Numbered from the stretch's first letter, positions 11,103 to 43,103 are shown. The stretch: DNA of 64,000 bases from an uncultured Clostridia bacterium (GCA_963766335.1 CAVXZA010000002.1:706254-770253), one strand, 5' to 3'. The notes: a model not told the origin generated them from the sequence alone. Numbers and translations: made by a program.

Positions 11103-11116
11103 CGGCTTCTTTTTTT
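11092..11116 (+). terminator. Rho-independent terminator of the rnf operon (AAGAAGCC-taac-GGCTTCTT + T7)
   Basis: hairpin plus 7-T run immediately after rnfB stop. Confidence 0.8.
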
Positions 11117-11150
11117 GCACATTTGTCCCTAGGGACAAATGTGCAAAAAA
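11111..11150. repeat. REP-like palindromic repeat, copy A. It is a perfect 40-bp palindrome, TTTTTTGCACATTTGTCCCTAGGGACAAATGTGCAAAAAA.
   Basis: sequence equals its own reverse complement; core shared with 11 other copies in window. Confidence 0.9.
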
Positions 11151-11261
11151 GCAGGAATTATCTCTAGAGACAATTTTCGTTTTTGAAAAATGATTTGTAA
11201 ACAAATTGTTTAGGTTCGCATGTAATATACTTTTAGAATTTAAAAAGAGTATAATTTTATT

Positions 11262-12860
11262 ATGAAAAAAGTTATTTTAGTTTTGATGATCTTATTAATT
11301 TGTCTATCCGCTTGTAATGAAACTTCTATGCGAGGAACTTCTGAAAAACCGGATATTGATGTTAGTGATGCTCCTAGAATAACAAACTCAAATGGTATGA
11401 TTGAAGAAACATCGACACCTTTGGAAGAAACAGAACAATTACCTGATATTTTTGAACCTGTTAATCTGCTTTCGATTTTCCAACCGGCATACTCAAAAGA
11501 TGAGAAATATTTTAATTTGATGAGCTGGCAGGAATATATTGCCGACAAATTCGATATAGAAATAAATATATTTTATCAATCAAAAGAGGTTAGCGGAGTA
11601 CAGGCAGTTTACTATTATAATTATCCTATTGGATATCCATTCAGTAAAGTTAATCAGGTTTTTGATTATACCAGTTCGGATATGGCTTATGATCTTTCTC
11701 CGTATTATGAAAAATATGGCTGGAATGATTTTATTGATCCTCTGTATATTGAAGATTTAAAAGTTGACGGCCGTATATATGCTGTACCTACCGAGGCAAA
11801 TAAGTATATTATTCCCCGCTATTATAATGCTGAATATCTTGCTCAACTCGGAATGGAAGTGCCTAAAGATATAAATAGTTTCTATAATTATTTGATTGAA
11901 GCAAAAAAAATTATGAAGGGAGAAAATATACTGCTGCCGATGTTAATTCCTCAGCACCAGATGTTCCCATGTACCTCAGATATTTTTCGAGCTTTCGGAG
12001 CTTATGTTAACAGTGAGTATAACTCTGCATTATCATTCAATCCAAACACACAAAGCTTTGAAGATGCCATTTTTTCAGATGACATAGAATCAGCACTTGA
12101 TTTTTTTAAGACTTTACAGACAGATAATATTATAGGCTTTTTCGGTAATGCATATTGTGAGAGTGATGATTTTAACAGAAATCAATTCTTTGGGGATAGA
12201 TTAAAAATTAGTCCGAATTTTGCAAGTGAGTATAATTTTATAATTGATGAAAATACTAAGTGGTTTAGAAAATTCCTAAGGGCTACCCCGAGATATGAGG
12301 CAGTAAGCGGATATTACCTTGAACACACTAATAATAAAAATGTTTGCGAGGTTCGAAGTGATATGGGTTTTTATGTATTTCCTACAAATATTGAGAATAT
12401 TAATGGAACAATAGATTTATTTAATTCAGTAATGACCGATAAAACTTATTACCCGGATCTTTTGTACGGGTTAGAAAATACAGATTATGAGATTATAGGC
12501 AATGAAATATATCCTAAAAGACCCAGGGACGGTACGTTTACAGGAATTCGGATGATAAGCGCAGTTGTAGATAAAAACAACTATTATTCTGCAAATAATA
12601 TAGATATTGTCGGCGACATTGCTTCCAGTCTGATGTATGAATCTAATATTTTTACCCAGACATCAAGATACAGAGATATTGTTGGTGGATCAACTATAAG
12701 TTCTAGTTCCTATTTTGATAATCTTTTTTTGGGGTGTGTTTCTTCTGAAGAAGCAGTAAAAGAATATAGAAAATGGTTTATGGAATCAGGAATGTATCAA
12801 ACTCTGGATAAGCTGAATGAAAGAATAAATGCAACAACCGCCTATGAATACACTCCCTAA
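11262..12860 (+). CDS. Lipoprotein, extracellular solute-binding protein family 1 (LipO/YtcQ-like). It is an orphan; no ABC permease genes are adjacent.
   Basis: signal peptide with lipobox LSAC; DGRIYAVP block typical of family-1 sugar SBPs; C-terminal region of DUF3502 type; bracketed by REP copies. Confidence 0.55.
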   Translation: MKKVILVLMILLICLSACNETSMRGTSEKPDIDVSDAPRITNSNGMIEETSTPLEETEQLPDIFEPVNLLSIFQPAYSKDEKYFNLMSWQEYIADKFDIEINIFYQSKEVSGVQAVYYYNYPIGYPFSKVNQVFDYTSSDMAYDLSPYYEKYGWNDFIDPLYIEDLKVDGRIYAVPTEANKYIIPRYYNAEYLAQLGMEVPKDINSFYNYLIEAKKIMKGENILLPMLIPQHQMFPCTSDIFRAFGAYVNSEYNSALSFNPNTQSFEDAIFSDDIESALDFFKTLQTDNIIGFFGNAYCESDDFNRNQFFGDRLKISPNFASEYNFIIDENTKWFRKFLRATPRYEAVSGYYLEHTNNKNVCEVRSDMGFYVFPTNIENINGTIDLFNSVMTDKTYYPDLLYGLENTDYEIIGNEIYPKRPRDGTFTGIRMISAVVDKNNYYSANNIDIVGDIASSLMYESNIFTQTSRYRDIVGGSTISSSSYFDNLFLGCVSSEEAVKEYRKWFMESGMYQTLDKLNERINATTAYEYTP

Positions 12861-12888
12861 TTATTAAAAATTTATTTCTTTTATAATC

Positions 12889-12960
12889 TTTTGCACATTT
12901 GTCCCTAGGGACAAACGTGCACTTATTTAACATTTGTCCCTAGGGATAAATGTTAAATAT
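12889..12960. repeat. REP-like palindromic repeats, doublet B. B1 is GCACATTTGTCCCTAGGGACAAACGTGC and B2 is AACATTTGTCCCTAGGGATAAATGTT.
   Basis: two imperfect palindromes ~36 bp apart sharing the GTCCCTAGGGA core. Confidence 0.85.
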
Positions 12961-13045
12961 GGGCAATGGAAAGCATGGTGGTGTATAATAGTTTTTGACG
13001 ATATATACCACCTTTTTATACATTTTCAGGTAATGGAGGCTCGAT

Positions 13046-13558
13046 TTGAAAGTTATTGATAAAAATATGAAACTATTCGGTAAGGTAAGCCTTCTGGACA
13101 TACTGATTGTAATGGTTGTCATTGCTGCGATTATCGCTGCAACCGTATATTTCAGTAGCCACGGCACAGGGTTCGGGGGGGTTGAAACCCAGCCCATAAC
13201 CTACGAAGTCATGATAAAAAAAGTGGATTATGACTTTGTTGACGATATAGCGGCAGGTCAGCAGGTAAACGACAGGGTCAAGGGTTACAACAGGGGTATT
13301 GTGGAAAGCGTTGAGATTGTTCAGCATTCGGATAAAGCCACAGACCTGACTACCGGAGCACAGGCCTTGAAAGAATATCCTGGGCTGTATGATGCAATTG
13401 TCCGGATTAATGTTGACGCAGAAGTCACTGACCGTTATATAAACCTTTCTGGAAATAGAATAGACATCGGAAAGGAAGCTTATCTTCAAATTGGTGCCAA
13501 CGTTTATAAGAGCTGGGTTTCTGCGATTGAAGTACTTGATGAAGGAGGAAGCCAATGA
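13046..13558 (+). CDS. Small membrane-anchored protein (DUF4330-like). It is the first of a tandem paralogous pair.
   Basis: TTG start 6 nt after GGAGG; single N-terminal TM then ~130-aa soluble domain; weak similarity to next ORF in architecture. Confidence 0.5.
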   Translation: MKVIDKNMKLFGKVSLLDILIVMVVIAAIIAATVYFSSHGTGFGGVETQPITYEVMIKKVDYDFVDDIAAGQQVNDRVKGYNRGIVESVEIVQHSDKATDLTTGAQALKEYPGLYDAIVRINVDAEVTDRYINLSGNRIDIGKEAYLQIGANVYKSWVSAIEVLDEGGSQ

Positions 13559-14049
13559 AATTTATTAATGAAAAAGGCAGGCTTTTCGGCATCCTCAACA
13601 TTTTTGATTTATTTATAATCCTCCTGATAATCTCTCTTCTGGCAGGGGTATATTTTGTTTTCATCCGTGAAGATGACAGTGTAACCAAAGAGAACGTAAA
13701 AGTAGTTTACGAACTACAGCTGGAAGAATCATGGAAAGAACTGTATATTGATGCATTCTCGCCTGGAGAGAAGGTGTATTTCAAAGAAAGCGACATATAT
13801 ATAGGAACTATAAAAGAAATAAAAGCTGAGGAAGCCTGGGAATATGAGTCAGATTTAAACGGTGACTGGGTACTGGCTAAATCTAAAGGCTTCTACTTCA
13901 TAACTCTGGTCATTGAAGCGGATGCCGTCAAATCCGGAGAAGGCTATATAGTCGAAAACAACTGGAATGCTTTCAATGGCACAACGATTGAATTTTCAAC
14001 CAGGCGCCACTCAACTTTGGGTCAGGTTAAATCCCTGGAGGAAGAATGA
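13555..14049 (+). CDS. Small membrane-anchored protein (DUF4330-like). It is the second paralogue.
   Basis: same architecture (MKFINEKGRLFGILNIFDLFIIL TM then soluble domain); start overlaps upstream stop. Confidence 0.5.
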   Translation: MKFINEKGRLFGILNIFDLFIILLIISLLAGVYFVFIREDDSVTKENVKVVYELQLEESWKELYIDAFSPGEKVYFKESDIYIGTIKEIKAEEAWEYESDLNGDWVLAKSKGFYFITLVIEADAVKSGEGYIVENNWNAFNGTTIEFSTRRHSTLGQVKSLEEE

Positions 14050-16289
14050 AAAAAAGCATCCTCATAGCCACCATGGCCCTTGGAATAGGAGGGGCTGAAA
14101 CCCATATCGTCGAATTATCAAGGAAACTCGCTCAATTCGGGCACCGGGTTACAGTGGTTTCCAACGGCGGAATATATGTAGATGAGTTGAAAAAAGCAGG
14201 AGTCAGGCACATTAAAGTACCTCTTCACACTAAGAATCCGGCAAGTCTGCTAAAATCATACGCACAACTCAAGAAAATCATAGTAAGGGAAAACATCGAT
14301 ATTGTTCACGCACATGCAAGGATACCGGCATTCCTGTGTAATTTCGTGTGTAAAAAATATAATGTGCCTTTTGTAACCACAGTGCATTATGAATTCCGCA
14401 CATCACTTTTATTTAAAACATTCACCCGTTGGGGAAGCTACACACTTTCCGTCAGCAGGGATGTTAACAAGTATCTGATCGATAACTATAAATATGACGA
14501 GGACAGGGCTGGGCTGACCGTCAATGGAATTAACAGCGACGTCTTTTATCCCCGAAAAAAAGATCCCGGAATTATGAAAGAATTCGGTTTTTCAGAGGAT
14601 GACAATGTCATCACAACAATCTGCAGGATTGATAAGGGAAGCTCAAAGACCGCATTCATGCTGATAGATATTGCCGAAACACTTAATCAAGAAATAAATA
14701 ATCTTAGGATTATTATTGTTGGAGGCGGCAACCTGTTTGACCGGCTTACGGATAGGGTTGAAGCGGTCAATAAAAAAGCAGGGTATAAGCTTGTGACAAT
14801 AACAGGGCCAAGAAGAGACATAAGCGACATACTATCTGTTACAGATGTTTTCACGGGTATCAGCAGGGCTGCGCTAGAAGCAATGGCTATGGAAAAACCG
14901 GTTGTGCTCTGCGGTGATTTCGGATACCTTGGCATAATGGATGAAGAAAGCCGCGGAATGGCAATCGAAACCAACATGACCTGCAGGGAAATGGCTCCGG
15001 TATTTAATGAAAAACTTCAAACCGACCTTATTCTACTCTTTAGGGATAAGGCCGTAAGGGAAAGAAATGCCAGGTTAAACCTGAATACAGTCAGGGATTT
15101 TTATACAGTTGAAAAAATGGCTAACGACGCCGTTAATATGTATACCAAAGCTTTTTCTGAAAAAGCAACACCACCTAAATACTACCATGCGGTGCTTTCC
15201 GGATATTATGGTTTTGACAACAGCGGAGATGAAGCAATGCTGGCGTCAATTCTTAGGGAACTTAAAGAAAAGAAAAGCGACATACGGATTATGGTGCTTT
15301 CGAAAAAGCCGGCTGAAACCTCAAATAGATACGGGGTGGATTCAATGGCAAGGGCTAACCCATTATCGCTTTTAAGAATTTTCAACAGGACAGGAATGCT
15401 CATAAGCGGCGGCGGAAACCTGATTCAGGACCTGACCAGTTTCCAGTCGATGGTGTATTACACCAGCCTAATGAGATATGCTAAATTCAGGGGTTTGAAA
15501 GTCATGCTTTATGCAAATGGAATCGGTCCGTTGATTAGGTTCCGTTCAGTGAAAATAGCAGGCAGAGTGCTGGATAAAACAGATGTTATAACAGTGCGCG
15601 AACCCAATTCATATGATTTGCTCTCGAAAATAGGTGTTCGAAAACCAAGAATTTATGTAACTGCAGATCCTGTTATTAGTTTTAAAAAGCCGGAAGCCGG
15701 AAAAGTTGATGAAATTTTACAAATGCATTCCATCCCGGCTGACCGAACAACGGTAGTTTTTTCGGTACGACCATGGAAAGGTCTTGAAGGAACATTTGAA
15801 CCGATTTTTGCACACATAGCCGACTATCTATCTGAAAAATACAACATGCTTCCGGTTTTTATACCTTTGAATACAAAAAAAGACACCAAGATTTCCGGAG
15901 ATATCATCGGTTTGATGAAAAACCCTGCCTTGTTGGTTGAAAATGAGAACAGAGCGCGGAATCTTGTAGGAATAATCTCAAATGCGGACCTGCTGATTGG
16001 GATGCGGCTGCATTCACTAATTTATGCATCAATAACGGACACTCCTGTAATAGGGATAGTATATGATCCTAAAGTGCGGTATTTCATAGACATGATGGAA
16101 CAAGAAGACGGCGGCTTGATAGAAGACCTTGATTTTGACAGAATAACGAAACTGATTGATAAAATCATGGCCGGCAGGGAGTCATATATTAAAAAACTCA
16201 AAGCTAATATGGTAAGACTAAGAAAGTTATCAGCCAAAAATGCACAACTGGCGATTGATTTGATGTATGGGGAGACTGCAGATGAATAA
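14046..16289 (+). CDS. Bifunctional glycosyltransferase family 4 / polysaccharide pyruvyl transferase (CsaB-like) fusion protein
   Basis: N-terminal ~370 aa GT4 (GGAETHIVEL...Glycos_transf_1 EAMAMEKPVV); C-terminal ~370 aa begins YHAVLSGYYGFDNSGDEAML, the signature start of CsaB/PS_pyruv_trans. Confidence 0.75.
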   Translation: MKKSILIATMALGIGGAETHIVELSRKLAQFGHRVTVVSNGGIYVDELKKAGVRHIKVPLHTKNPASLLKSYAQLKKIIVRENIDIVHAHARIPAFLCNFVCKKYNVPFVTTVHYEFRTSLLFKTFTRWGSYTLSVSRDVNKYLIDNYKYDEDRAGLTVNGINSDVFYPRKKDPGIMKEFGFSEDDNVITTICRIDKGSSKTAFMLIDIAETLNQEINNLRIIIVGGGNLFDRLTDRVEAVNKKAGYKLVTITGPRRDISDILSVTDVFTGISRAALEAMAMEKPVVLCGDFGYLGIMDEESRGMAIETNMTCREMAPVFNEKLQTDLILLFRDKAVRERNARLNLNTVRDFYTVEKMANDAVNMYTKAFSEKATPPKYYHAVLSGYYGFDNSGDEAMLASILRELKEKKSDIRIMVLSKKPAETSNRYGVDSMARANPLSLLRIFNRTGMLISGGGNLIQDLTSFQSMVYYTSLMRYAKFRGLKVMLYANGIGPLIRFRSVKIAGRVLDKTDVITVREPNSYDLLSKIGVRKPRIYVTADPVISFKKPEAGKVDEILQMHSIPADRTTVVFSVRPWKGLEGTFEPIFAHIADYLSEKYNMLPVFIPLNTKKDTKISGDIIGLMKNPALLVENENRARNLVGIISNADLLIGMRLHSLIYASITDTPVIGIVYDPKVRYFIDMMEQEDGGLIEDLDFDRITKLIDKIMAGRESYIKKLKANMVRLRKLSAKNAQLAIDLMYGETADE

Positions 16290-17841
16290 AAAGGCAGTAA
16301 AAACAATCAGCCTTATAATGGTAATCATATTATTCAGCAAACTCCTGGGACTTGTAAGGGATATATTTCTGACAGGTTATTATGGGCAGGGAATGACACT
16401 GGACGCATTTACAACCGCATCGGATATACCGCTAAAGTTCTTTGACCTGGCTTTTGGAGCTGCGGTTACCTCCACATTCATTCCGGTATTCAATACATAT
16501 TTAAAGAATGATGACAAGGAAAACGGATTCCTGTTTGCCTCCCGCTTCATAAATATTATTTTTATATTGATTTCAGTAGTTGCTATTCTCGGGATGATCT
16601 TCTCGCAGCAGCTGATAAGCCTCTTTTTACCTGGAAGCAGCCCGGAAGTACAGCTGCTTGCTGTGAAATTATTAAGGATCATGTTCCCTGCGGCGGTTAT
16701 GGCGGGCCTGGCATTTTCAATGGTAAGCATACTACAGTCCATGGGGCAGTTTACGGTCCCGGCGATGATAAGCTTGTTTCCCAATGTATTGATGATTGTA
16801 TACATATTGCTTTTTAATAAGAGCTTTGGCGTAGAAGGCCTTGCGGTTGCTTTCCTTTTGGCTTGGTTACTCCAAGTGCTTGTACAGATACCTTTTATCA
16901 GAAAAAAGAATTTCATGTACACGCCCTCGTTAAAATTCAACGACCCTGGTATTAAGAAGGTTTCAAAGATGGCTCTTCCCATATTGATAAGTTCGTGGGT
17001 GGCCCCGGTTTCGCTTTTTATACTGGGAGCGCTTGCCTCATATATGGGGGAAGGATCTGTAACTTCAGTCCGGCTATCCAACAGACTTTACCTCATACTC
17101 GCCGGGATTTTCGTTTTTGCTATGATGAATTACTTGTTCCCGCTGATGTCCCGTCAGGCGGGAGACGCAGATCCGGGAGAGTTTAACAATACTTACAGAA
17201 GGGCGTTTGAAAGCCTGTGTTTCTTCATACTTCCACTTTCGGTGGGTGCATTTTTACTTAGTCCGAACCTGATAGCACTGCTATATGAACGAGGTGAATT
17301 TACCTCCGAAGCAACCGGGATGATGGCAGCGGCGTTCGCAGGATTCTGTCCGGCAGTATTCGGATATTCCTTATATGAAATTACATCAAAGGCATATTAT
17401 GCGCGTAAAAAAGTTGCCGCACCTACAATAATGTCGCTTGTTGCGCTGGCAATAACATTCGTATTGGCATATATCGTGGTTTTCCGAACAAATCTTAGCA
17501 TCGGCTATGTAAGCCTTGCATTTTCAATCGGGATAACCCTTTCTGCGGTGATTCTTGCCGTTATGTTCAGCAGGCGGATGGGAGGAATCCTAAAAGGAAG
17601 AAGCAACGCAGAACTCCTAAGAGGTATTATAGGTTCAGTTTTGATGGGAGCTGTTGTATTTGCGTTTAGAAAATTCATTTTAGATAATTCCACCGGGGGA
17701 TTCTGGACATTGCTGCTGTTAACAGGTGCAGCGGCAGCAATCGGAATAGTTGTTTACATGGCCGTCATGGCGCTTTTGAAATCGCCGACTTTCGGATACT
17801 ATTATAAATGGGCGAAACAGAAATTCGCAGGGGTAAAATAA
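16282..17841 (+). CDS. MurJ/MviN family lipid-linked oligosaccharide flippase (CsaA/Wzx-like role likely)
   Basis: 14-TM protein; N-terminal LGLVRDIFLTGYYGQGMTLDAFTTASDIP matches MurJ family; start ATG overlaps upstream stop, GGGGAG SD. Confidence 0.75.
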   Translation: MNKKAVKTISLIMVIILFSKLLGLVRDIFLTGYYGQGMTLDAFTTASDIPLKFFDLAFGAAVTSTFIPVFNTYLKNDDKENGFLFASRFINIIFILISVVAILGMIFSQQLISLFLPGSSPEVQLLAVKLLRIMFPAAVMAGLAFSMVSILQSMGQFTVPAMISLFPNVLMIVYILLFNKSFGVEGLAVAFLLAWLLQVLVQIPFIRKKNFMYTPSLKFNDPGIKKVSKMALPILISSWVAPVSLFILGALASYMGEGSVTSVRLSNRLYLILAGIFVFAMMNYLFPLMSRQAGDADPGEFNNTYRRAFESLCFFILPLSVGAFLLSPNLIALLYERGEFTSEATGMMAAAFAGFCPAVFGYSLYEITSKAYYARKKVAAPTIMSLVALAITFVLAYIVVFRTNLSIGYVSLAFSIGITLSAVILAVMFSRRMGGILKGRSNAELLRGIIGSVLMGAVVFAFRKFILDNSTGGFWTLLLLTGAAAAIGIVVYMAVMALLKSPTFGYYYKWAKQKFAGVK

Positions 17842-25977: not shown

Positions 25978-25985
25978 GAGATAAA

Positions 25986-27128
25986 ATGTTACAAATTTTA
26001 CAGGCAATCATTATTTTTGCAGTACCGATGCTCATACTCTGGGCTAAAAAAAGGTACAAAATTGTAAAAACCTTAAGCCCGATTTTACTGGCGTATGCCA
26101 TTGGAATAATATGGGGAAATATACCGGGAATACCTCTCGACAGGGGACTTTCGGATATTTTAACACAGGTAAGCGTACCAATAGCAATTCCGTTGATTCT
26201 TTTTTCTGCCGACTTTATTAAATGGCTGAAATCGGCTAAGAAAACAGTTATATCCTTCGTTTTAATGATTGTTTCAGCATTTCTTGCAGCGCTTCTTGCG
26301 GCATGGATTTTTAGGGAAACAATAGATGAGTTTGCAAAAATCTCGGGCATGATGATAGGAGTTTATACCGGTGGAACACCAAATATGATGGCAGTCGGTA
26401 TGATGCTGGAGACAAATAAAGACACGATGGTTTTAGTCAGTACAGTTGATAGTATACTGGGCGGAGGCTATTTCTTATTACTTATATCCATTATTAAACC
26501 ATTGTTGTCAAAAATATTAAGACCGTATAAAAGCACAGACAATTCTGAAATAATTGAAGAAGAAGTACCGGAATTCACATCCCTTAATAAAAAAGAAAAA
26601 GTTAAAGCAGTAAAAGGTGTTTCGCTTGCCGTTTTAATTTGTATAGCAGGACTTGGAATCAGTGCTGGAATAGCATTGCTGGCAACAGGTAATCTGGATG
26701 TTGCAATAGTAATGCTTGGAGTTACCACTGTTGGGGTAGGAATGTCATTTGTTAAAAAAATCAAAAACCTACGATATACTTTTAATGCCGGACAATATTT
26801 AATACTGGTATTTTCAATAGCGCTTGGAACAATGGTAAATATTAAGGAAATGCTGAACTCATCACCTGCCGTGCTTGGGTTTGTAGCTGTAGCAATGTTC
26901 GGAGCAATAATAATCCATCTCATTTTCGCTATAATATTTAAAATTGATGTCGATACAGCCATAATAACCTCAACCGCCGGAGTATATGGCCCCGCATTTA
27001 TTGTGCCTGTTGCTGATGCAATAAAAAACAAGGAAGTAATTGTGGCAGGCCTAACAGCAGGCTTAGTAGGCTACGCTGTAGGCAATTACCTCGGCCTACT
27101 CGTCTACACCATCGCCAAACTCTTTTAA
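25986..27128 (+). CDS. DUF819 family polytopic membrane protein (putative transporter)
   Basis: 380 aa, ~10 TM segments, two-lobed organisation typical of DUF819. Confidence 0.55.
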   Translation: MLQILQAIIIFAVPMLILWAKKRYKIVKTLSPILLAYAIGIIWGNIPGIPLDRGLSDILTQVSVPIAIPLILFSADFIKWLKSAKKTVISFVLMIVSAFLAALLAAWIFRETIDEFAKISGMMIGVYTGGTPNMMAVGMMLETNKDTMVLVSTVDSILGGGYFLLLISIIKPLLSKILRPYKSTDNSEIIEEEVPEFTSLNKKEKVKAVKGVSLAVLICIAGLGISAGIALLATGNLDVAIVMLGVTTVGVGMSFVKKIKNLRYTFNAGQYLILVFSIALGTMVNIKEMLNSSPAVLGFVAVAMFGAIIIHLIFAIIFKIDVDTAIITSTAGVYGPAFIVPVADAIKNKEVIVAGLTAGLVGYAVGNYLGLLVYTIAKLF

Positions 27129-27193
27129 AATTGTCCCTAGGGTAAAAAGTACTTTTTTGACACATTTGTCCCCAGGGACAAATGTGTTTTTTT
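27127..27193. repeat. REP-like repeats, doublet C. This is the left flank of the RAYT gene: a truncated copy TTGTCCCTAGGG plus a full palindrome CACATTTGTCCCCAGGGACAAATGTG.
   Basis: read directly; 47 nt (27131-27177) are the exact inverted complement of 28054-28100. Confidence 0.85.
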
Positions 27194-28100
27194 AACCTGA
27201 CAGGTTAAATTTCGACTAAATTTATATTAGTAGTATATTCACAAAAATTACCATTTAAGCTAAATTATTTGCATGACAACTTTAACACGCAACTTAAGAG
27301 AAAACGGAATATACCACGTATACAACAGAGGTATTGACCAGATGGATATTTTTCTTGAACCTGAAGATTTCCGTTTTTATCTGAAAAGGCTTCGTGTCTG
27401 TAAGGAAGAATATGGTTTTGAACTATATGCGGTATGCCTTATGACAAACCACTATCATCTAATTATTAGGGATGTCGGATTGAACCTTCCCATGATAATG
27501 GATTCAGTAAATAGTGTATATGTAAGATATTTTAATGATAAATATAATCGTAAAGGGCCGCTTTTTGGAGAGCCCTTTAAACATGGAATTATCTCTTCTG
27601 ACTATGACTTGGCTAAGCGGATCAGGTATGTGAATAGAAATCCTGTAGCAGCCGGTATGTCCAGGAGTATCTATGATTATTCATGGGTTTTGATAATCAC
27701 GGAGAAAGATTACCTTCATTTAATAAATTTTGACTATATTGATGAAGTCTTTCTCAAAGTATGTAAAACATCATACGAAGAGTATCTTAAATCTGATGAG
27801 GATGACCTATGGGTTGATGAAATAGAAATTTGTAGAATGTATGATTCTGAGGCAAATAAAATCTTTGAGTTGATTTTAACGAAAATTACAAACAGTGAAA
27901 ACTTTAACAAGAAAGAATTAACCAAAACCGAGATTGATAAAGTCATTAAAACCACATTTTCCAGAGGAATAACAATCAGGCAGATTTCAAAGCTCACTGA
28001 TTTGTCCATTTCTACTATCAGAAAGTTTCTGTATAATTAAAAAACATGTTAACCCCTGGGGACAAATGTGTCAAAAAAGTACTTTTTACCCTAGGGACAA
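27131..28100. mobile_element. REPIN-RAYT unit. An IS200/IS605-family (Y1 HUH) REP-associated tyrosine transposase gene is bounded by 47-bp perfect terminal inverted repeats made of REP palindromes.
   Basis: 27131-27177 TTGTCCCTAGGGTAAAAAGTACTTTTTTGACACATTTGTCCCCAGGG is the reverse complement of 28054-28100; encloses RAYT ORF. Confidence 0.7.
27273..28040 (+). CDS. REP-associated tyrosine transposase (RAYT; IS200-like Y1 transposase, COG1943) with C-terminal HTH extension
   Basis: N-terminus YHVYNRGIDQMDIF, HUH motif NHYHLII, C-terminal RYVNRNPVAAGMSRSIYDYSWV block typical of TnpA(IS200)/RayT; extra C-terminal domain ending GITIRQISKLTDLSISTIRKFL (HTH-like). Confidence 0.75.
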   Translation: MTTLTRNLRENGIYHVYNRGIDQMDIFLEPEDFRFYLKRLRVCKEEYGFELYAVCLMTNHYHLIIRDVGLNLPMIMDSVNSVYVRYFNDKYNRKGPLFGEPFKHGIISSDYDLAKRIRYVNRNPVAAGMSRSIYDYSWVLIITEKDYLHLINFDYIDEVFLKVCKTSYEEYLKSDEDDLWVDEIEICRMYDSEANKIFELILTKITNSENFNKKELTKTEIDKVIKTTFSRGITIRQISKLTDLSISTIRKFLYN

Positions 28101-28113
28101 ATGTGCAAAAAAA
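28045..28113. repeat. REP-like repeats, doublet D. This is the right flank of the RAYT gene, in inverted orientation relative to doublet C.
   Basis: AACCCCTGGGGACAAATGTGTC ... CCCTAGGGACAAATGTGC. Confidence 0.85.
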
Positions 28114-28138
28114 GAGCCGCTGTTAAGCGACTCTTTTT
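28107..28138 (-). terminator. Rho-independent terminator of PFOR gene (hairpin AGAGTCGC-ttaaca-GCGGCTCT followed by U7 on minus strand)
   Basis: hairpin with one mismatch plus A7 on plus strand = U7 on minus. Confidence 0.7.
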
Positions 28139-28156
28139 GGTTTAAGTTAATGAATG

Positions 28157-31690: not shown

Positions 31691-32015
31691 TTTGTTTCTC
31701 CTTTTCTTAATTCCTATGTAACGGCGAACGCATAAAAACGCGCACCTAATTATAGCCACTCAGTATTCTATCACAATTATATATTATATGTTCCTTGTTA
31801 TATAGATTTTTTAGTTATTTCTGCTAAATCTGCATTAAATTGCAGTTCTATATCACGTTAAAATAAAATTTCAATTTTTCATAAATAATTTTTGGAAATT
31901 AATGATACAAAAATAAGAGAAATATCCCACGGACAATTTTTGCCTTGGGTTTATAAAAAACAGGTATGCTGATATAATACAAGCGAAAGAACAACATAAG
32001 ATTAAAGGTGATAAA

Positions 32016-34562: not shown

Positions 34563-34632
34563 AACTATTCCAGTCATAATTCTGCCATATTTTTATTGCA
34601 CAATTAAATGTAGAAACTTCAAAGGAGGAGTT

Positions 34633-34818: not shown

Positions 34819-34830
34819 GAGGAAGAGATT

Positions 34831-35082: not shown

Positions 35083-35090
35083 GAAATAAT

Positions 35091-35336
35091 ATGAGAACAG
35101 CTATGAAAATTGTATTGGTATTGGCATTTATACTAATTTTAACAGGGATTGCCGGTAGTGTGTTTTCCTTTGTACAGACGACACATAAAGAGGGGTTGGA
35201 TGAATCGTTTTATATCAGAAGCGGAATGATGGGCGAATCGCATTATACCAGAAGCGGAAAGGTTAATGATTATCGAGAGTTTTGCTATGATGAGCTAGAT
35301 GAGAGTTGTCCGATAGAATCTCTGCCAATTCGATAA
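35091..35336 (+). CDS. Small membrane protein, unknown function
   Basis: 81 aa, N-terminal TM, GGAAATAATATG SD-like; no known motif. Confidence 0.4.
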   Translation: MRTAMKIVLVLAFILILTGIAGSVFSFVQTTHKEGLDESFYIRSGMMGESHYTRSGKVNDYREFCYDELDESCPIESLPIR

Positions 35337-35428
35337 CTTTAACCGAATTGGGAATAATATAAGTAAGAACAAAGCCTGAAGGCATAATATTAAAAATGTT
35401 TAAATAATTTGAATGGCCGGGTAACAGA

Positions 35429-36115: not shown

Positions 36116-37485
36116 CTATTAGAAAATTGTGGCTGATACTCCTCACCCTTGTTGCTGTTGTCTCCGTAATTATAAACGCAGCTGTTCTCAGCGTTTTGAC
36201 CAATAGATATTTCAAAGATTATTTAACAGAAAACTATGAAAATCATTTCAACCAGATTGTTGAATACTCAAAACAGGTGTTAAAAACAGAAGATTTATCC
36301 ATTGCCCAAATGAAGATTGAAATGGAAACACATTTGGATGATCCCATAATCCGTATTAAGTTATATGATGAAGAAGGCACAATTATTGTTGATGTAGGTG
36401 ATGACACCGGTACATTGCCAATGATGATGGGAGGCAGAATGATGCCGATGATGGGTTCCGGATATACGGTAGCGGATCAGGAAAGTGACAGTTATGAAAT
36501 TGTCGATGGAGGTAAAACAGTAGGATACCTTGCAATAACAAGATACAGTTCGATAACTGACTCTATCAATACCCGGCGCTTTAAAGCTTCACTTGTAATC
36601 AACAGCTTGTTTTCAACTATACTTGTAATAATTCTTGCAGTATTTATAGGAGTTTTTATCAGTAAACGAATGAGCAGGGATTTAATGAGCACGGCGAAGC
36701 TGGCCCAGGACATTTCACTTGGCACTGATACTGACATAAAAAAAACGAATATTGAAGAGATTAGGATAATACGACAAAGCCTGGAAGCTCTTAAAAATAG
36801 ATTGAAGCTTAAAAATAAGAGCAGGAAGATCCTTGTGGATGAACTTATCCATCAGACAAGAACGCCGCTTACTATATTGAAAACTCATTTGGAAGGATAT
36901 TCTGATAAAATTATAGAAATGACGCCAGAAGAAATAAAAGTTCTTGGGAACCAGATAGAAGATATTTCCTCAATAATCTCCAATATGAGTAACATTATTG
37001 ATACAGAAAAAGATGTTACAGTTATGAATATTGAGGAATTTGAACTAACCAGATTATTAAAGCAGATTGTAAACGGACTGAAAGTTCAATTCAGCAATAA
37101 AAAAATAGATTTAAACTTAATTTGTGAAGAAAAATCCACACTTAAAACAGACAGATATAAATTAAGCCAGTCAATATACAATGTTCTGACAAATGCATAT
37201 AAATTCACTGGAGAAAGCGGGTCAGTTACCATTGGCTGCTCGGTTGTCAACGGTCATGTCTTGATTGAAGTCAAAGATACAGGCATTGGGATGGATGAAG
37301 ACGAAACAGGTAGAATTTTCGACGCCTATTACAAAGGGAACAGCTTAAAAACGGGCGATGGCCTTGGATTATTCATAGCAAAAGAAAATCTAAACAAAAT
37401 TAATGGTTCAATCAAAGTAATATCAAAATCCGGCGAGGGAAGCACATTCACAATCAGTATTCCCATTGGGGATGTTAACGGATAA
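36112..37485 (+). CDS. Sensor histidine kinase (two TM segments, HisKA + HATPase_c)
   Basis: H-box HQTRTPLTIL, N/G boxes (NAYKFT, DTGIGM, GDGLGL); overlaps RR stop. Confidence 0.8.
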   Translation: MTIRKLWLILLTLVAVVSVIINAAVLSVLTNRYFKDYLTENYENHFNQIVEYSKQVLKTEDLSIAQMKIEMETHLDDPIIRIKLYDEEGTIIVDVGDDTGTLPMMMGGRMMPMMGSGYTVADQESDSYEIVDGGKTVGYLAITRYSSITDSINTRRFKASLVINSLFSTILVIILAVFIGVFISKRMSRDLMSTAKLAQDISLGTDTDIKKTNIEEIRIIRQSLEALKNRLKLKNKSRKILVDELIHQTRTPLTILKTHLEGYSDKIIEMTPEEIKVLGNQIEDISSIISNMSNIIDTEKDVTVMNIEEFELTRLLKQIVNGLKVQFSNKKIDLNLICEEKSTLKTDRYKLSQSIYNVLTNAYKFTGESGSVTIGCSVVNGHVLIEVKDTGIGMDEDETGRIFDAYYKGNSLKTGDGLGLFIAKENLNKINGSIKVISKSGEGSTFTISIPIGDVNG

Positions 37486-37575
37486 AATATTACTCGCTAC
37501 ATAGATCATCATTGACAGAGTTTTCTTTAACTATTATCATGGCAAATAAGTAACACAAAGTAACTGAGGAGAGAT

Positions 37576-38790
37576 ATGCAATACAGGACAATGCCGGGTT
37601 CGGATGAAAAACTATCAATATTAGGATATGGCTGCATGAGGTTGCCTACTGCTTTCGGCGGAGTAATTGACAAAGAAAAAGCACTAAAGCAAATCAGGAG
37701 CGCTATTGACAGAGGAGTTAACTATTTAGATACCGCATGGCCGTATCATATGGGTAATTCTGAATCATTCCTAGGGGAACATGTCTTGAAAGACGGGTAT
37801 CGTGAAAAGGTTTTTTTAGCCACAAAACTTCCTTGTATGATGATAAGAAAAAAGGAAGCCATAAGGGAAACTTTTGAAAAGCAGCTTAAGAAACTTCAAA
37901 CTGAATATATAGACTATTATCTTCTGCATAGTTTAGACGGCCCGGCATGGGACAAGATGCTGAACCTTGGAATCATCGAGTTCATGGATGAGGTTAAAGC
38001 TTCGGGTAAAGCAAGGAAAATGGGCTTTTCATTTCATGGCAAAAAATCGGACTTCATGCGCATATGCGATGGATACGATTTCGATTTTGCACAGGTTCAG
38101 TTCAATATATTAGATGAGCAATACCAGGCGGGAATTGAAGGAATTGAGTATGCAGCTAAAAAAGGCATGGGAATCATTGCTATGGAACCTCTTAGAGGCG
38201 GAGCTCTTGTAAGCAAGATGCCGACAGAGGTGAAACAGATATATGCGGGCTCCGGTTTCCAGCGATCTGCTGCCGAATGGGCGTTTCGATGGGTATGGAA
38301 TCATCCCAATATACAGATTGTTTTATCCGGAATGAACGTGGATGAACATATAAATGAAAATATTAGGATTGCTTCAGAAGCCGAAGCCGAAAGCATGAGC
38401 GAAGAGGAACTGGCAGTCATAGGACGCGTAAGGGACACATATAAAGATCTGATGCAGGTTGGTTGCACCCAATGTGCTTACTGCATGCCCTGTCCGGCGG
38501 GAATCAATATTCCTGCAGCATTAGGAAATCTGAACGAGTATCACATGTATTCAAAGAGAAGTGCAAAACTCCATCATGTAATGCATCTGGGATTGGACAG
38601 TAAAGACGGAAAACCCCATTGGACTACCGATTGTATTGACTGCGGGGAATGCGAAAAGAAATGTCCCCAGAATATACCGGTCCGCGAGGTCTTCAAACAG
38701 GTTCAGAATGATCTTGAAGGACCATCAACCAAGATCATAACCTTCCTTGCAGGAATATTCCTTGGAAGACGGAATAAAAAGAAAAAATAA
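37576..38790 (+). CDS. Aldo/keto reductase family oxidoreductase with C-terminal 2x[4Fe-4S] ferredoxin domain (COG1453 type)
   Basis: AKR N-terminus GYGCMRLP...YLDTAWPY; C-terminal CTQCAYCMPCP and CIDCGECEKKCP motifs. Confidence 0.75.
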   Translation: MQYRTMPGSDEKLSILGYGCMRLPTAFGGVIDKEKALKQIRSAIDRGVNYLDTAWPYHMGNSESFLGEHVLKDGYREKVFLATKLPCMMIRKKEAIRETFEKQLKKLQTEYIDYYLLHSLDGPAWDKMLNLGIIEFMDEVKASGKARKMGFSFHGKKSDFMRICDGYDFDFAQVQFNILDEQYQAGIEGIEYAAKKGMGIIAMEPLRGGALVSKMPTEVKQIYAGSGFQRSAAEWAFRWVWNHPNIQIVLSGMNVDEHINENIRIASEAEAESMSEEELAVIGRVRDTYKDLMQVGCTQCAYCMPCPAGINIPAALGNLNEYHMYSKRSAKLHHVMHLGLDSKDGKPHWTTDCIDCGECEKKCPQNIPVREVFKQVQNDLEGPSTKIITFLAGIFLGRRNKKKK

Positions 38791-38818
38791 CCCACATATT
38801 ACCTATCCTTATAAGAAG

Positions 38819-38843
38819 ACCTCCTGGCAACAGGAGGTTTTTT
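38819..38843 (+). terminator. Rho-independent terminator (ACCTCCTG-gcaa-CAGGAGGT + T6)
   Basis: hairpin + T-run after AKR stop, immediately followed by REP doublet E. Confidence 0.8.
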
Positions 38844-38915
38844 ACTGCACATTTGTCCCTAGGGACAAACGTGCACTTTTTTAACATTTGTCCCTAGGGA
38901 CAAATGTGCAAAAAC
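38844..38915. repeat. REP-like repeats, doublet E. E1 is GCACATTTGTCCCTAGGGACAAACGTGC, identical to B1; E2 is AACATTTGTCCCTAGGGACAAATGTGC.
   Basis: read directly. Confidence 0.85.
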
Positions 38916-38954
38916 CGATTATTCTCATGGGTAATTGTGGTTTATAATATACTT

Positions 38955-40436
38955 ATGAAAAAGAAACCTCATATTATTATTTTTAACCCAGATCAATTCA
39001 GAGCCGATGCCCTGCATCATATGGGGTGCGAGGCGGCTGTTACGCCGAATATGGACAAGACAGCTGCAGAAGACGGGATTTCATTCAGAAATGCTTTCTG
39101 TCAGAATCCAGTCTGCACTCCGAGCAGATGTTCTTTCATGACTGGCTGGTACACCCATATCCACGGCCATCGCACCATGTACTATATGCTAAGAAAAAAT
39201 GAGCCGGTTTTACTAAAAATTCTAAAGGACAACGGTTATTATGTCTGGTGGGGCGGTAAGAACGACCTTATTCCCGGACAGTATGATGAATTGGAATACT
39301 GCTCACACTATAACAGAACCAAAAGAAATACCAATAAAAACCTACATCAGACTGCAGCCGACTGGCGAGGTCCTAAGGGCGGTGACAATTATTTTTCTTT
39401 CTACGCGGGAAAACTAGAATCTAATGAAGATGGTACATATATCGATGAGGATTGGGCTAATGTCCTGGATGCAATAGATTTCATTAGAAGTTATGACGGC
39501 GAACGACCGCTGTGCGTTTACCTGCCTCTTTCTTATCCCCATCCGCCATATGGTGTTGAAGAACCGTTTTACAGCATGATTGACCGATACAAGGTGGATC
39601 CTCCGAAGAAGGCATATGACAATTGGGACGACAAACCGTCAATGCTAAAGGGCATATATAGGGAACAATACATGCGGAACTGGGATGAACAACGCCTGGT
39701 AGAGTTGAAAGCAACTTATCTGGCGATGTGCGCCAGGGTTGATAAGCAGTACGGCATGCTGCTTGACGCATTGAAAAATAAAGGAATTTATGACGACAGC
39801 GCTGTTTTCACATTCAGCGATCATGGTGATTTCACCGGCGATTACGGACTTGTCGAAAAGACTGAAAATACATTCCAGGATGACCTTACCAATGTACCGC
39901 TTATATTTAAGCCGCCGAAATGTATAGATACAAAATCCCGGATAACTGATGCAATGGCTGAGCTTATCGATTTCACTGCAACCGTATTCGAACTCACGGG
40001 AATTGAACCGGGATATACACACTTTGGAAAATCTCTTGTCCCTTTAGCTGAAGGGAAAATCGATGAACTCCGTGATGCAGTCTTTTGCGAAGGCGGTCGA
40101 ATGCCATATGAAAAACACTGTGACGGACATCAGTCAACCAGCGCCGGAACAGATTTTTTGTATTCGCCGAGGATAAACCTGCAGATAGGCGACGGACCGG
40201 AACATTCAAAGGCGGTCATGGTCCGCACACATGATTATAAATATGTATACAGAGTCGGTGAAAAACACGAATTGTATGATTTAAAAACAGACCCGGATGA
40301 ATTTACAAATTTAATTGATGACAAGGCATATGCAGACATTCTGGCAGGCTTGAAAAACCGAATGCTGCAGTTTTTTGTAGAAACAGGCGATGTGGTGCCT
40401 TTTGATGGAGACAAACGGTGGTTTAATGAGACCTGA
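38955..40436 (+). CDS. Sulfatase (Cys-type formylglycine motif C-T-P-S-R)
   Basis: N-terminal sulfatase signature NAFCQNPVCTPSRCSFMTGWY; start at MKKKPHIIIF ATG (ORF extends to 38904). Confidence 0.75.
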   Translation: MKKKPHIIIFNPDQFRADALHHMGCEAAVTPNMDKTAAEDGISFRNAFCQNPVCTPSRCSFMTGWYTHIHGHRTMYYMLRKNEPVLLKILKDNGYYVWWGGKNDLIPGQYDELEYCSHYNRTKRNTNKNLHQTAADWRGPKGGDNYFSFYAGKLESNEDGTYIDEDWANVLDAIDFIRSYDGERPLCVYLPLSYPHPPYGVEEPFYSMIDRYKVDPPKKAYDNWDDKPSMLKGIYREQYMRNWDEQRLVELKATYLAMCARVDKQYGMLLDALKNKGIYDDSAVFTFSDHGDFTGDYGLVEKTENTFQDDLTNVPLIFKPPKCIDTKSRITDAMAELIDFTATVFELTGIEPGYTHFGKSLVPLAEGKIDELRDAVFCEGGRMPYEKHCDGHQSTSAGTDFLYSPRINLQIGDGPEHSKAVMVRTHDYKYVYRVGEKHELYDLKTDPDEFTNLIDDKAYADILAGLKNRMLQFFVETGDVVPFDGDKRWFNET

Positions 40437-42162
40437 AACGATGAAAAGGCCGAATATAGTTTTTGTATTAACAGACGACCAGGGCTACGGCGACCTGGGA
40501 TGCCACGGTAATCCTATTATTCAAACGCCTAATCTGGATCAGTTCCATAACGAAAGCATAAGGTTTACCAATTACCATGTAGGTCCCACATGCGCACCTA
40601 CCAGGGCTGGGCTGATGACAGGCCATTATGCTAACAGCACCGGGGTGTGGCATACATTCGGCGGCCGTTCTTTACTAAGGCGTAATGAATGGACGCTTGC
40701 ATCGGCGCTTAGTGAAAACGGCTACAGGACAGGTATCTTCGGCAAATGGCATCTTGGCGATAATTACCCATACCGGCCGTTCGACAGAGGATTTGATGTA
40801 TCAATAACCCATGGCGGAGGAGGCATCAGCCAGACTCCGGACTACTGGGGTAATGATTATTTCAGTGATAAATACTCAGTCAACGGCAAATTAAAGCAAT
40901 TCGACGGATATTGCACGGATGTATTTTTTGATGAGGGAATGAAATTCATTGAAGAAAACAGAAACAATTCATTCTTCTGCTATATTGCATTGAACGCACC
41001 CCATGTGCCGCTCAATATCGCGCCGGAATATTATGAAATATATAAAGGCAAAACCGATTTTAAAAAGGCTCGTTTCTACGGAATGATAACCAACATAGAC
41101 GAAAACTTCGGCATACTTAGAAAAAAACTGAAGGAACTGGAGCTCGAAGATAATACAGTACTTATTTTCATGACAGACAACGGCTCGGATTCCGGTGTTG
41201 AGATTGATGAAAACTGCTTTGTAACAAGCGGATATAACGCAGGTCTGCGCGGCAAGAAACTTTCAGAATACGACGGCGGACACAGGGTACCGTTTTTCAT
41301 CAACTGGCCCCGTGGAATAAGGGAAATAAATGAACTTACGGCAAATGTGGATTTCATGCCTACAATACTGGATATCTGCGGCATTGAAAAACGCGGGAAC
41401 ATTGAGTTTCACGGGAAAAGCCTAGTGCCATTGCTTAGGGGCGAAGGCGGATGGGAAGAACGGGTTTTGGTTACGGATAATCAAAGGCATCCGACTCCCA
41501 TCAAGTGGAACAAAAGTGCGGTCATGACCCAAAAGTGGAGGCTAATCAACGGATGCGAACTATATGATATGGATACAGACCGGGAGCAGCGCAACGATCT
41601 TTCAGCCAAGTATCCAGAGGTTATTGAAAATCTTTGCAAAGAATATGAAAAATGGTGGGAGATTGTATCAAAGCAGTATGATGAAATGATTCCCATACCA
41701 ATTGGTAAAAACCCCGTTACATTGCTCAGTCAAGACATGCGGAACCAGGAATGTATTGCAGCACACAGCCAGCATCAGGTAAGGTTGGGATTGAAAGCCC
41801 TTGGTTACTGGGAAGTGGAAATTGAAGAAGAGGGAGAATATGAATTTGAAATACGTAGATGGCCGGCTTCCCATGAAAGACCCATTTCGGCGGGAATAGA
41901 CGGTGATGATATTGAATTTTACAGGGAAGGTGTAAGCGAAAGTGATTGGTACAGGTATACCGGAGGTGTTGCACTTCCCATAAAACAAGCATCAATAAAA
42001 ATCCAAGACACAAAAATGTCATCGGGAATATCCCCTGATTCAATGGCTGCTTCTTTTATAATAAGTTTAAAATCCGAAGAATGTAAGCTTTATGCAAGTT
42101 TCGGTAACGACAATACGCATGAACTCCTCGCTCCTTACTTTATATATGTGAGAAAAAAATGA
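40426..42162 (+). CDS. Arylsulfatase-family sulfatase (Cys-type motif C-A-P-T-R)
   Basis: PNIVFVLTDDQGYGDLGCHGN ... VGPTCAPTRAGLMTGHY; start uncertain (40426 or 40441). Confidence 0.75.
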   Translation: MRPETMKRPNIVFVLTDDQGYGDLGCHGNPIIQTPNLDQFHNESIRFTNYHVGPTCAPTRAGLMTGHYANSTGVWHTFGGRSLLRRNEWTLASALSENGYRTGIFGKWHLGDNYPYRPFDRGFDVSITHGGGGISQTPDYWGNDYFSDKYSVNGKLKQFDGYCTDVFFDEGMKFIEENRNNSFFCYIALNAPHVPLNIAPEYYEIYKGKTDFKKARFYGMITNIDENFGILRKKLKELELEDNTVLIFMTDNGSDSGVEIDENCFVTSGYNAGLRGKKLSEYDGGHRVPFFINWPRGIREINELTANVDFMPTILDICGIEKRGNIEFHGKSLVPLLRGEGGWEERVLVTDNQRHPTPIKWNKSAVMTQKWRLINGCELYDMDTDREQRNDLSAKYPEVIENLCKEYEKWWEIVSKQYDEMIPIPIGKNPVTLLSQDMRNQECIAAHSQHQVRLGLKALGYWEVEIEEEGEYEFEIRRWPASHERPISAGIDGDDIEFYREGVSESDWYRYTGGVALPIKQASIKIQDTKMSSGISPDSMAASFIISLKSEECKLYASFGNDNTHELLAPYFIYVRKK

Positions 42163-42995
42163 AAAATATTCTTATAACCGGAACCAGCGGTGCGCTGGGC
42201 AAAAATTTAAGAGAGTACTTTCTGGACCAGGGCTATAAAGTGATTGGCACCGTTGGCAAAAGTAAACCGCGGGAAGGAGAGATTCCAATAAACCTTGGCG
42301 ATTGGGATAGTTATACAGCGCTGCGTGAAGTGGTTAAGAATAAAAATATTGATGCAATAATACATAACGCGGCGGCTCTTCACGGCAAGGCAGGTATAAG
42401 GAAAACCTATAGGGCCAATGTTGTCGGCACGGAAAATATGCTGCGTCTGGCTTATGAGTGCAGCTGCGTTAATTTCATCCAGATAAGTACAGTAGGTATC
42501 TATGGTATCCGGTCGCTTGGGAAAAACCGAACTGAAGAAACTCACCCGATTGACATAGAACCTTACGGAATAACTAAGAAAATAGCTGAAAAAAGAATTT
42601 TATCATCAGAAACACCGTACACGCTTCTCCGTCTGCCTTTGGTTAAATACAGCGGTGGCTACCTTATTGAAAAGCCTATAAAAAAGGGCATATCTGTTTT
42701 TATAAAAAAACGCGAACTGAACATTGTTTCATCAGTCATTCCTGAGTTTGTCGCTAAAACATGCGAATGGATAGTAGAAAATGGCCCGCTAAACGACATT
42801 TTTAACTGTGCCAGCCATCACCAGACCTGGCGCGAGATGGTCATGGACCACTGTAGGCATGAAGGCATAGAAATTATAAACACAAAAAGGGTTTCAATAT
42901 TAGGCGCATTTTCAATGGGTATTGTAATCGGTCCAATCGCCGCATTCGGACAGCATACACCCTCAGACAAGATGGAAGCCATAATAAATCATTAA
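42159..42995 (+). CDS. NAD-dependent epimerase/dehydratase (SDR) family protein
   Basis: N-terminal Rossmann motif ILITGTSGALG; 278 aa. Confidence 0.65.
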   Translation: MKNILITGTSGALGKNLREYFLDQGYKVIGTVGKSKPREGEIPINLGDWDSYTALREVVKNKNIDAIIHNAAALHGKAGIRKTYRANVVGTENMLRLAYECSCVNFIQISTVGIYGIRSLGKNRTEETHPIDIEPYGITKKIAEKRILSSETPYTLLRLPLVKYSGGYLIEKPIKKGISVFIKKRELNIVSSVIPEFVAKTCEWIVENGPLNDIFNCASHHQTWREMVMDHCRHEGIEIINTKRVSILGAFSMGIVIGPIAAFGQHTPSDKMEAIINH

Positions 42996-42997
42996 AA

Positions 42998-43103
42998 TTT
43001 TTCATTTGTCCCTAGGGATAAACATTCACTTTTTTAACATTTGTCCCTAGGGACAAATATGCACTTTTTTAACATTTATCCCTAGGGACAAATGTTCATT
43101 GAG
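42998..43103. repeat. REP-like repeats, tandem triplet F (three ~35-bp units, head-to-tail)
   Basis: TCATTTGTCCCTAGGGATAAACATTCACTTTTTT / AACATTTGTCCCTAGGGACAAATATGCACTTTTTT / AACATTTATCCCTAGGGACAAATGTTCATT. Confidence 0.85.

Follow-up and report, generated by a model that had tools for sequence, protein, structure and literature searches.

To our knowledge, systems that combine repetitive extragenic palindromes (REPs) with a REP-associated tyrosine transposase (RAYT) have been studied almost only in Proteobacteria. In these systems (E. coli yafM and its counterparts in Pseudomonas and Stenotrophomonas; PMC2817692, PMC3333891, PMC3116915, PMC8266576), the palindromes are found outside genes as singlets, doublets, and clusters. 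A rayt gene located between inverted REPs is referred to as a REPtron (PMC2817692, PMC3333891), and the E. coli enzyme, TnpA_REP, requires a GT[AG]G foot (PMC3333891). Group 1 RAYTs have been reported also in Clostridia, in what is the single sentence on Clostridia in the literature searched, with flanking 16-mer frequencies only moderately elevated for that group (Bertels et al. 2017, PMC5581495). The TIRYT proteins and their TIRtrons (Di Nocera 2013, PMC3733652) are equated with the TnpA_Y1 subclass 2.1 (Quentin 2018, PMC6006769), long proteins with a C-terminal helix-turn-helix (HTH) domain (Bac_DnaA_C, HTH_23, or HTH_28) beside whose genes no REP-like hairpins were found (PMC6006769). Here we describe a repeat family and its putative transposase in a 64,000-nucleotide stretch of DNA from an uncultured Clostridia bacterium (GCA_963766335.1, CAVXZA010000002.1:706254-770253; referred to below as the window), which contains six arrays of palindromic units, A to F, and, between arrays C and D, a gene for a RAYT-like Y1/HUH tyrosine transposase (27273..28040, plus strand).

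What is observed is a dispersed, extragenic, structurally constrained palindrome family, with the transposase systematically located between its inverted arrays at a conserved chromosomal position. We consider it about 80% probable that these REP/BIME-like palindromes (BIME, bacterial interspersed mosaic element) and the single Y1 HUH transposase form a REPtron/TIRtron-like system, in which, by analogy with the described ones, the transposase would mobilize or maintain the repeats. This is a known kind of element, of the REP/RAYT type, in a poorly documented host group. An earlier examination of the window from its sequence alone (the sequence-only reading) had proposed a REP-like, probably mobile family, as opposed to an operator; that proposal is supported by the RAYT-like gene between arrays C and D, such a transposase being the defining partner of REPs.

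The window carries 13 units, the 12 listed in the sequence-only reading and one extra degenerate copy, and re-reading of the six loci bore out all the coordinates given there, as well as the strictly intergenic placement: every array falls between open reading frames (ORFs). The palindrome family is real and non-random. In the window, the motif GTCCCTAGGGAC with up to 2 mismatches had 11 matches, compared to 0.97 ± 0.96 expected (none of the 100 shuffles reached 11), and the 22-mer CATTTGTCCCTAGGGACAAATG with up to 3 mismatches had 10 matches where none were expected. Array A (11111..11176, minus orientation) consists of the perfect 40-bp palindrome already noticed at 11111-11150 (core 11123-11138) and a second, decayed unit (AATTATCTCTAGAGACAATT, 11156-11175) located 35 bp past the first. 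The earlier division of the copies into a singlet, doublets, and a triplet thus stood for the doublets and the triplet but not for the singlet, since the decayed unit makes A a doublet. Array B (12892..12957, plus) is a doublet with 35-bp spacing whose units have different outer stems (TGCAC..core..CGTGCA in B1 and TTTAAC..core..GTTAAA in B2). Array E (38846..38910, plus) is also a doublet, and its first unit (38846-38875) does have the same sequence as B1 (12892-12921). Array F (43002..43098, plus) is indeed a head-to-tail triplet of units with a period of 35 bp. Units of the window, and no others, were oriented by linker homology (GTGCAAAAAAGC in the case of array A); across lineages, linker A/T content was an unreliable guide.

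The two arrays that flank the transposase gene mirror each other. Array C (27128..27192, plus), the left end of the REPtron, has a half-decayed outer unit (core 27131-27146) and an intact inner hairpin (27160-27187; centre, CCCCAGGG), and a T-run after this hairpin gives it a terminator-like look. Array D (28039..28107, minus), the right end, comprises an inner unit (28045-28072, centre CCCTGGGG), too degenerate to be caught by the motif searches, and an outer unit (28080-28107); the left arms are decayed in both. Arrays C and D form a 62-nt inverted repeat (27131-27192 and 28039-28100) that is 92% complementary, with 846 nt between its halves, and such inverted arrays around the transposase gene are the REPtron arrangement. 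Terminator-like hairpins adjoin three of the loci, as had been suggested: A (11092-11116), D (28107-28140), and E (38820-38843); the one at D is that of the PFOR gene, which is on the minus strand. In predictions of single-stranded DNA folding, arrays A, B, E, and F had z-scores of −7 to −10.7 relative to shuffled sequences, C had −3.9, and D −1.4; the best fold of the single-stranded doublet E was one long, REPIN-like hairpin (−28.7 kcal/mol; REPIN, REP doublet forming a hairpin). A CRISPR interpretation was rejected on account of the 35-bp period and the lack of unique spacers; nor were cas-like genes noticed among the annotated ORFs.

The transposase, a protein of 255 amino acids, was recognized from its Pfam and NCBIfam matches, predicted fold, and synteny. 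It matches the Pfam family Y1_Tnp with E = 1.4e-6 and the NCBIfam equivalog REP_Tyr_transpos (NF047646) with E = 7.6e-16, over positions 4 to 145 of the 146 in the profile. The HUH motif is H60-Y-H62 and the catalytic tyrosine is Y119, within YVNRNPVAAG; in an alignment of 26 homologs, the residues H15, R19, D32, H60, H62, and Y119 are invariant, and N123 and P124 are at least 90% conserved. These two belong to the signature Y-x3-NP (Y119-V-N-R-N123-P124 here), which marks class 2 (TnpA_REP-type) proteins, while Y-x3-Q marks IS200 (PMC6006769). A sequence search of the PDB with the transposase gave no match and only the fold search succeeded: the best match of its AlphaFold2 model (pLDDT 89.9) was 4ER8_A, E. 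coli TnpA_REP with a REP hairpin (E = 8.7e-6, target TM-score 0.71), followed by the IS200, IS608, and ISDra2 transposases. The C-terminal part (residues ∼150 to 255) is helical in the model (153-164, 168-173, 191-206, 218-230, 235-242, and 246-254) and probably is an HTH domain; HTH matches are sub-threshold in the window protein, and among its homologs there are weak ones to HTH_23 (in two) and HTH_28 (in one), with E = 5e-4 to 5e-3. There is one copy of the gene in the window and one in each related locus, and no tnpB adjoins it, the neighbors being the DUF819 and PFOR genes. Between the inner unit of array C and the start codon lies a conserved AT-rich inverted repeat (27193..27235, plus strand), with the orthologue consensus CAGTATAAATTT-loop-AAATTTATACTG; the window's own copy is imperfect. 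In the aligned orthologous leaders, 11 pairs are predicted, 4 of them with compensatory changes, and the folding energy is weak. This repeat may serve as an operator for autoregulation or form a leader hairpin as in IS200.

Eight orthologs of the transposase, 50 to 63% identical to it, were found in related metagenomic contigs (these and other compared loci carry L numbers below), all of them intact except for a shorter copy in L044. On each flank that is still within the contig, there are REP arrays with the 16-nt core TTGTCCCTAGGGACAA; the inverted arrangement is also seen in L013, L015, L081, and L044, and L012, L022, and L086 are cut by contig ends. Many of the ortholog-bearing contigs are only ∼0.9 to 2 kb long and end in repeats, which is the effect that a multicopy repeat has on assemblies. 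Wherever neighbors are visible, the slot DUF819-RAYT-PFOR is occupied, the gene being located between the DUF819 gene and the PFOR terminator. The transposase is the fastest-evolving gene of this syntenic block, with 50 to 55% identity versus 67 to 97% for its neighbors. In L015, the respective values are 54% and 67 to 96%; in L044 (10381-11046, 222 amino acids), the transposase is 50 to 52% identical to that of the window, compared to 97% for the adjacent C terminus of DUF819 and 91% for PFOR; in two close relatives, this points to a replaced allele or to a fixed locus that diverges very fast. Fast evolution has been reported for rayt genes (PMC2817692). As for the host, whose genome is represented by a 2.45-Mb contig, the window PFOR is 83 to 91% identical to proteins from metagenome-assembled genomes that, if they carry a source name, are labelled “Clostridia bacterium”; for the named cultured species among the matches listed, identity does not exceed ∼72%.

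The repeat is not confined to the gene neighborhood of the window, which would have spoken for something other than a REP family: it was found in ∼60 metagenomic contigs from related Clostridia, and in many of these the flanking genes are unrelated to those of the window. A metagenome scan with an 18-mer yielded 78 loci, 14 of which were of an unrelated Streptococcus prophage type; the same scan of a species collection of genomes found the family in only one metagenome-assembled genome, also from Clostridia (CSMAG_446, loci L005 and L008). In the remaining metagenome loci, the window, and loci fetched earlier, adjacent units are spaced by exactly 35 bp in all but 5 of 75 pairs (70 of 75). After removal of redundant loci, there were 40 singlets, 50 doublets, and 6 triplets, the doublet being the commonest form. 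With ORFs picked by a crude procedure, 75 of the 80 arrays proved extragenic; the intergenic regions that hold them are tandem, convergent, or divergent, the next such ORF is 1 to 487 bp away, and the arrays point either way with respect to transcription. The density of arrays is estimated at one per 11 to 27 kb.

The core TTGTCCCTAGGGACAA hardly varies among 133 distinct units, and stem positions 9 to 15 from the centre change by compensation (GCACATTTG/CAAATGTGC, GCACAAATTG/CAATTTGTGC, TGAAAATTG/CAATTTTCA, and GGTCATTTG/CAAATGACC). Among the outer-stem cells, 76.1% are paired, versus 70.4 ± 0.6% in shuffled data, and 179 are changed on both sides, versus 109. The covariation score is 0.199, compared to 0.114 for the shuffled data; none of the 500 shuffles reached the observed values, and slid controls were all at or below 0.111. 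An imperfect variant, ACGTTTATCCC..GGGACAAATGT, is recurrent and common as the second unit of arrays.

The sequence-only reading had called for a comparison of orthologous intergenic regions, which was made site by site in syntenic contigs with 71 to 85% nucleotide identity to the window. Site A is empty in L084 (81% identical) and occupied in L076 and L025; relatives have intact units at sites S1 and Y, where those of the window are apparently decayed; and site X is occupied in L015 alone. Besides these four presence/absence polymorphisms, there is an inversion at site B, where the orthologous doublet of L084 is in the opposite orientation, and a change of copy number at site F, where L093, L028, and L088 have two units and the window three. 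At site E, the doublet is identical in L085, though the surrounding aligned block is only ∼85% identical. Repeats are present or absent at orthologous sites without a change in the neighboring genes, and they turn over on the timescale of species divergence. The idea of recent spread or gene conversion, advanced earlier on the strength of the B1/E1 identity, fits the identity at E, the polymorphic sites, the inverted B, and the 3-versus-2 units at F. Two stretches are possible decayed REP remnants (strand not assigned): TTTTGCACATAGTTACAAATAATCAAAAA at 6024..6051, judged so from position and partial similarity only, corresponds to one intact REP in L084 and a doublet in L076, and ATATCCCACGGACAATTTTT at 31922..31941, likewise a putative remnant, corresponds to an intact REP in L044.

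It had also been suggested that the arrays bracket whole gene cassettes. One observation supports this, on the SBP gene (11262-12860) between arrays A and B. The protein identity of SBP is 41% in L084 and 55% in L076, while the flanking RnfB and DUF4330 are 77 to 91% identical in the same contigs; because SBP is so far below its neighbors, the cassette between A and B is hypervariable or exchanged.

Compared with the described families, the locus resembles REP/RAYT systems in having extragenic palindromes as singlets, doublets, and clusters, a lone Y1/HUH transposase gene with inverted arrays of the same repeat on both sides, a gene that appears fixed in position and is fast-evolving, stems that are kept by compensatory changes, and 4ER8 as the best structural match. 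It differs from them in its host, an uncultured Clostridia lineage, in its intact units, which are near-perfect palindromes centred on CTAG, and in its protein, which has 255 amino acids and an extra helical domain at the C terminus. BIMEs alternate orientation and REPINs are inverted pairs, whereas the window units run head to tail with a rigid 35-bp period; doublets are the commonest arrays and E folds as one hairpin, as a REPIN would, but by their linkers the units are head to tail, and each is self-complementary. The likeness to TIRYTs lies in the long class 2 Y1 protein with a C-terminal extension that is probably HTH-like, in the fact that some families of terminal inverted repeats are self-complementary and come in dimers or clusters, and in a G-rich motif of the flanking inverted repeats close to GGGGWSAS (PMC3733652). 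The half-site here is (A/G)GGGACAA; it matches that consensus at 6 of 8 positions in most units (AGGGACAA), at 7 of 8 in two gene-proximal units (GGGGACAA), and at all 8 in L102, a distant homolog (GGGGTCAG). Unlike the genes of subclass 2.1, the gene in the window and its orthologs are flanked by hairpin repeats, which are also dispersed. With IS200/IS605 insertion sequences, the locus has in common its Y1/HUH catalytic core, ends shaped as hairpins, and presumably a mechanism that acts on single strands; it differs in having Y-x3-NP instead of Y-x3-Q, no tnpB, inverted multi-unit ends, and a syntenic, apparently single-copy gene, and the repeats, not the gene, appear to be multicopy. The closest branch appears to be TIRYT/subclass 2.1, but with true hairpin repeats.

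Several observations weigh against a straightforward REP/RAYT assignment. The architecture is that of REP/RAYT systems, yet the score on NF047646 (58.3 bits) is under the RAYT cut-off of 80. Of the RAYT-specific residues of Nunvar 2010, an N-terminal Thr and NP(L/V)(R/K)xG following the Tyr, the Thr is missing from the protein, whose N-terminal strand reads YHVYNRG, and the latter motif appears as NPVAAG, with Ala instead of Arg/Lys in the fourth position. The units lack the GT[AG]G foot: no GTAG, CTAC, or CGTC occurs at a fixed position in the 133 aligned units, in which it is the hairpin top, TTGTCCCTAGGGACAA, that does not vary. A protein that binds the duplex symmetrically would also be compatible with the covariation of the palindromes, and the units nearest the transposase gene are the most decayed of all. 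The type of outer stem, which had been expected to track the transposase tree, tracks host relatedness instead: the window has GCACATTTG in common with the L081/L044/L086 clade, at ∼51% RAYT identity, and L012, with 62%, has CGGAAAATTG. Stem type follows the hosts, so gene conversion through host recombination could explain part of the homogeneity; enzyme and repeat vary together only at a deeper level (L019, L103, L100, and L102).

The decayed gene-proximal units and the host-related stem types would suit an explanation in which the repeats are maintained by the host alone, through recombination, gene conversion, and slippage, and are kept as terminators or stabilizers of mRNA 3' ends, the transposase being a relic or having some other job. 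A hairpin with a T-run behind it is similar to an intrinsic terminator, and array C has, in its inner unit, the site that heads the table of terminator-like sites from a scan of 27 to 43 kb (with 13 pairs, the most in that table). Arrays B and F, behind the SBP and epimerase genes, respectively, come straight after stop codons with no other terminator there. We nevertheless regard this explanation as unlikely. The catalytic residues would hardly be invariant over 26 homologs, nor the gene intact in eight orthologs (the shorter L044 copy aside), if the enzyme were a relic; arrays occur also in divergent regions and in both orientations relative to transcription; single lineages have new sites, such as X in L015; and most of the distant homologs examined have a repeat of their own on their flanks. 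An ordinary, currently mobile IS200/IS605-type insertion sequence, with the palindromes as its miniature derivatives (solo ends like those of PATEs or MITEs), would account for the Y1_Tnp domain, the terminal repeats of the gene, and the IS200/IS605 TnpA proteins as next-best structural matches. Such an element, however, would not be expected in the same chromosomal slot across lineages whose RAYTs are only 50 to 63% identical, nor in one copy per locus; the class 2 signature Y-x3-NP, the absence of an adjoining tnpB, and ends made of inverted arrays rather than same-sense subterminal hairpins likewise make this very unlikely. Hardly any weight can be given to the possibility that a dimeric transcription factor uses the palindromes as operators to control the flanking carbohydrate and sulfatase genes. 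Their half-sites are perfectly symmetric (TTGTCCC-TA-GGGACAA), and several arrays are located upstream of SBP, sulfatase, and ceramidase-like genes, but arrays also follow stop codons or terminators or lie between convergent genes, at the widely ranging distances from the next ORF given above. The sequence-only reading had named a coherent regulon with fixed promoter distances as the mark of an operator, and these varied intergenic contexts show no tie to either. Tandem 35-bp units, up to three of them, compensatory changes that vary the outer stem, and presence or absence at orthologous sites next to unchanged genes are not what operators would show, and the transposase is the only gene systematically linked to the repeats.

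If the repeats are mobilized or maintained by the transposase, a mechanism can be proposed by analogy with E. coli TnpA_REP and the TnpA of IS200/IS605. Where DNA is single-stranded, as it is at the replication fork, a unit would fold into a hairpin of ∼12 to 15 bp with a CTAG loop, whose invariant top (TTGTCC-CTAG-GGACAA) would be read by the transposase; a cut near the hairpin foot via Y119 and rejoining of the strands could then move, duplicate, or convert units in trans. The transposase gene itself would stay in place and be inherited vertically, and the fixed 35-bp head-to-tail arrays may be built by local recombination, for which the arrays would supply the homology. Binding to the half-site (A/G)GGGACAA in duplex DNA may fall to the probable HTH at the C terminus. 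As a secondary use, units followed by a T-run could act as terminators or 3'-end stabilizers, and some of the repeats probably do double as terminators.

The locus provides a clean case from Clostridia with comparative depth, combining a syntenic transposase, mirror-image ends, covarying dispersed repeats, and site turnover, and indicates that true hairpin repeats can form the family of a TIRYT-like protein with a probable HTH. In practical terms, the repeats break metagenome assemblies of this lineage, and annotation may mistake them for terminators or operators.

Most of the more distant homologs have different repeats in the same flanking places. In L019 (43% identical), these are CCCCCCGGGGGG/AAACCCCCCGGGGGGTTT palindromes, two of them ∼35.5 bp apart downstream of the gene; in L103 (35% identical), GTGTCAAAAACC..GGTTTTTGACAC palindromes centred on CTAG; in L100/L101, inverted arrays of a non-palindromic 35-bp unit, with three copies downstream; in L102, a 31-nt terminal inverted repeat that contains GGGGTCAG; and in L098, a TAGGGACAGG palindrome found upstream only. 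The 35-bp period is kept among members with unrelated repeats (the CCCTAGGG group, L019, and L100). At E ≤ 0.001, the cluster representatives matched in an exhaustive search numbered 20,185; among the 150 best, most were full-length matches of ∼245 to 260 amino acids, which shows that the two-domain architecture of ∼250 residues is common. A tentative generalization, which we hold to be possible rather than probable, is that proteins of ∼255 residues with a Y1 domain and a C-terminal HTH constitute a large, essentially undescribed class of REPtrons in uncultured anaerobes, with phased multi-site ends and recognition of the hairpin top or the duplex. If so, recognition would rest not on a GTAG foot but on the hairpin top or, via the HTH of the enzyme, on a half-site in the duplex, which would be a third mode besides the two in PMC8266576, and the REP-less TIRYT/subclass 2.1 proteins would be linked to true REP families.

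Some minor observations concern the repeat motif. The tetranucleotide CTAG is ∼6-fold under-represented in the window (38 occurrences versus 232 expected from base composition), and 11 of the 38 fall within the REP arrays, which span less than 1% of the window; CTAG is also the centre of the L103 palindromes. Altogether, 17 loci that share the 18-mer (3 Streptococcus loci from the genome scan and the 14 from the metagenome) were set aside as unrelated: they have 68/100-bp spacing and GGGACA fields and are located in prophage-like regions. Dense fields of GGGACA(A)/TGTCCC are seen in the Streptococcus contigs L003 (7040-7340), L009 (850-1200), and L010 (1880-2200), as well as in those 14 metagenome loci, next to RusA, Cro/CI-type HTH, and DUF1642 genes; they may represent a phage origin or an iteron field.

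The window has a positive GC skew throughout, and its sole Rfam match at the gathering threshold was a tRNA gene (1913-1986, minus strand). The second sulfatase gene (40417-42155) is missing in the otherwise syntenic L093, where the epimerase gene comes directly after sulfatase 1, an indel without bounding REPs. Beside a two-component system lies a stretch, 46139-46735 (∼445 to 600 bp), with stop codons throughout the one frame translated and with direct repeats of 47 nt, 91% identical, at its boundaries (46139-46185 and 46584-46630); 300 nt of it (46185-46484) are 88% identical to the 3' part of another SBP gene (49392-51065), and the stretch looks like a pseudogene fragment or an insertion.

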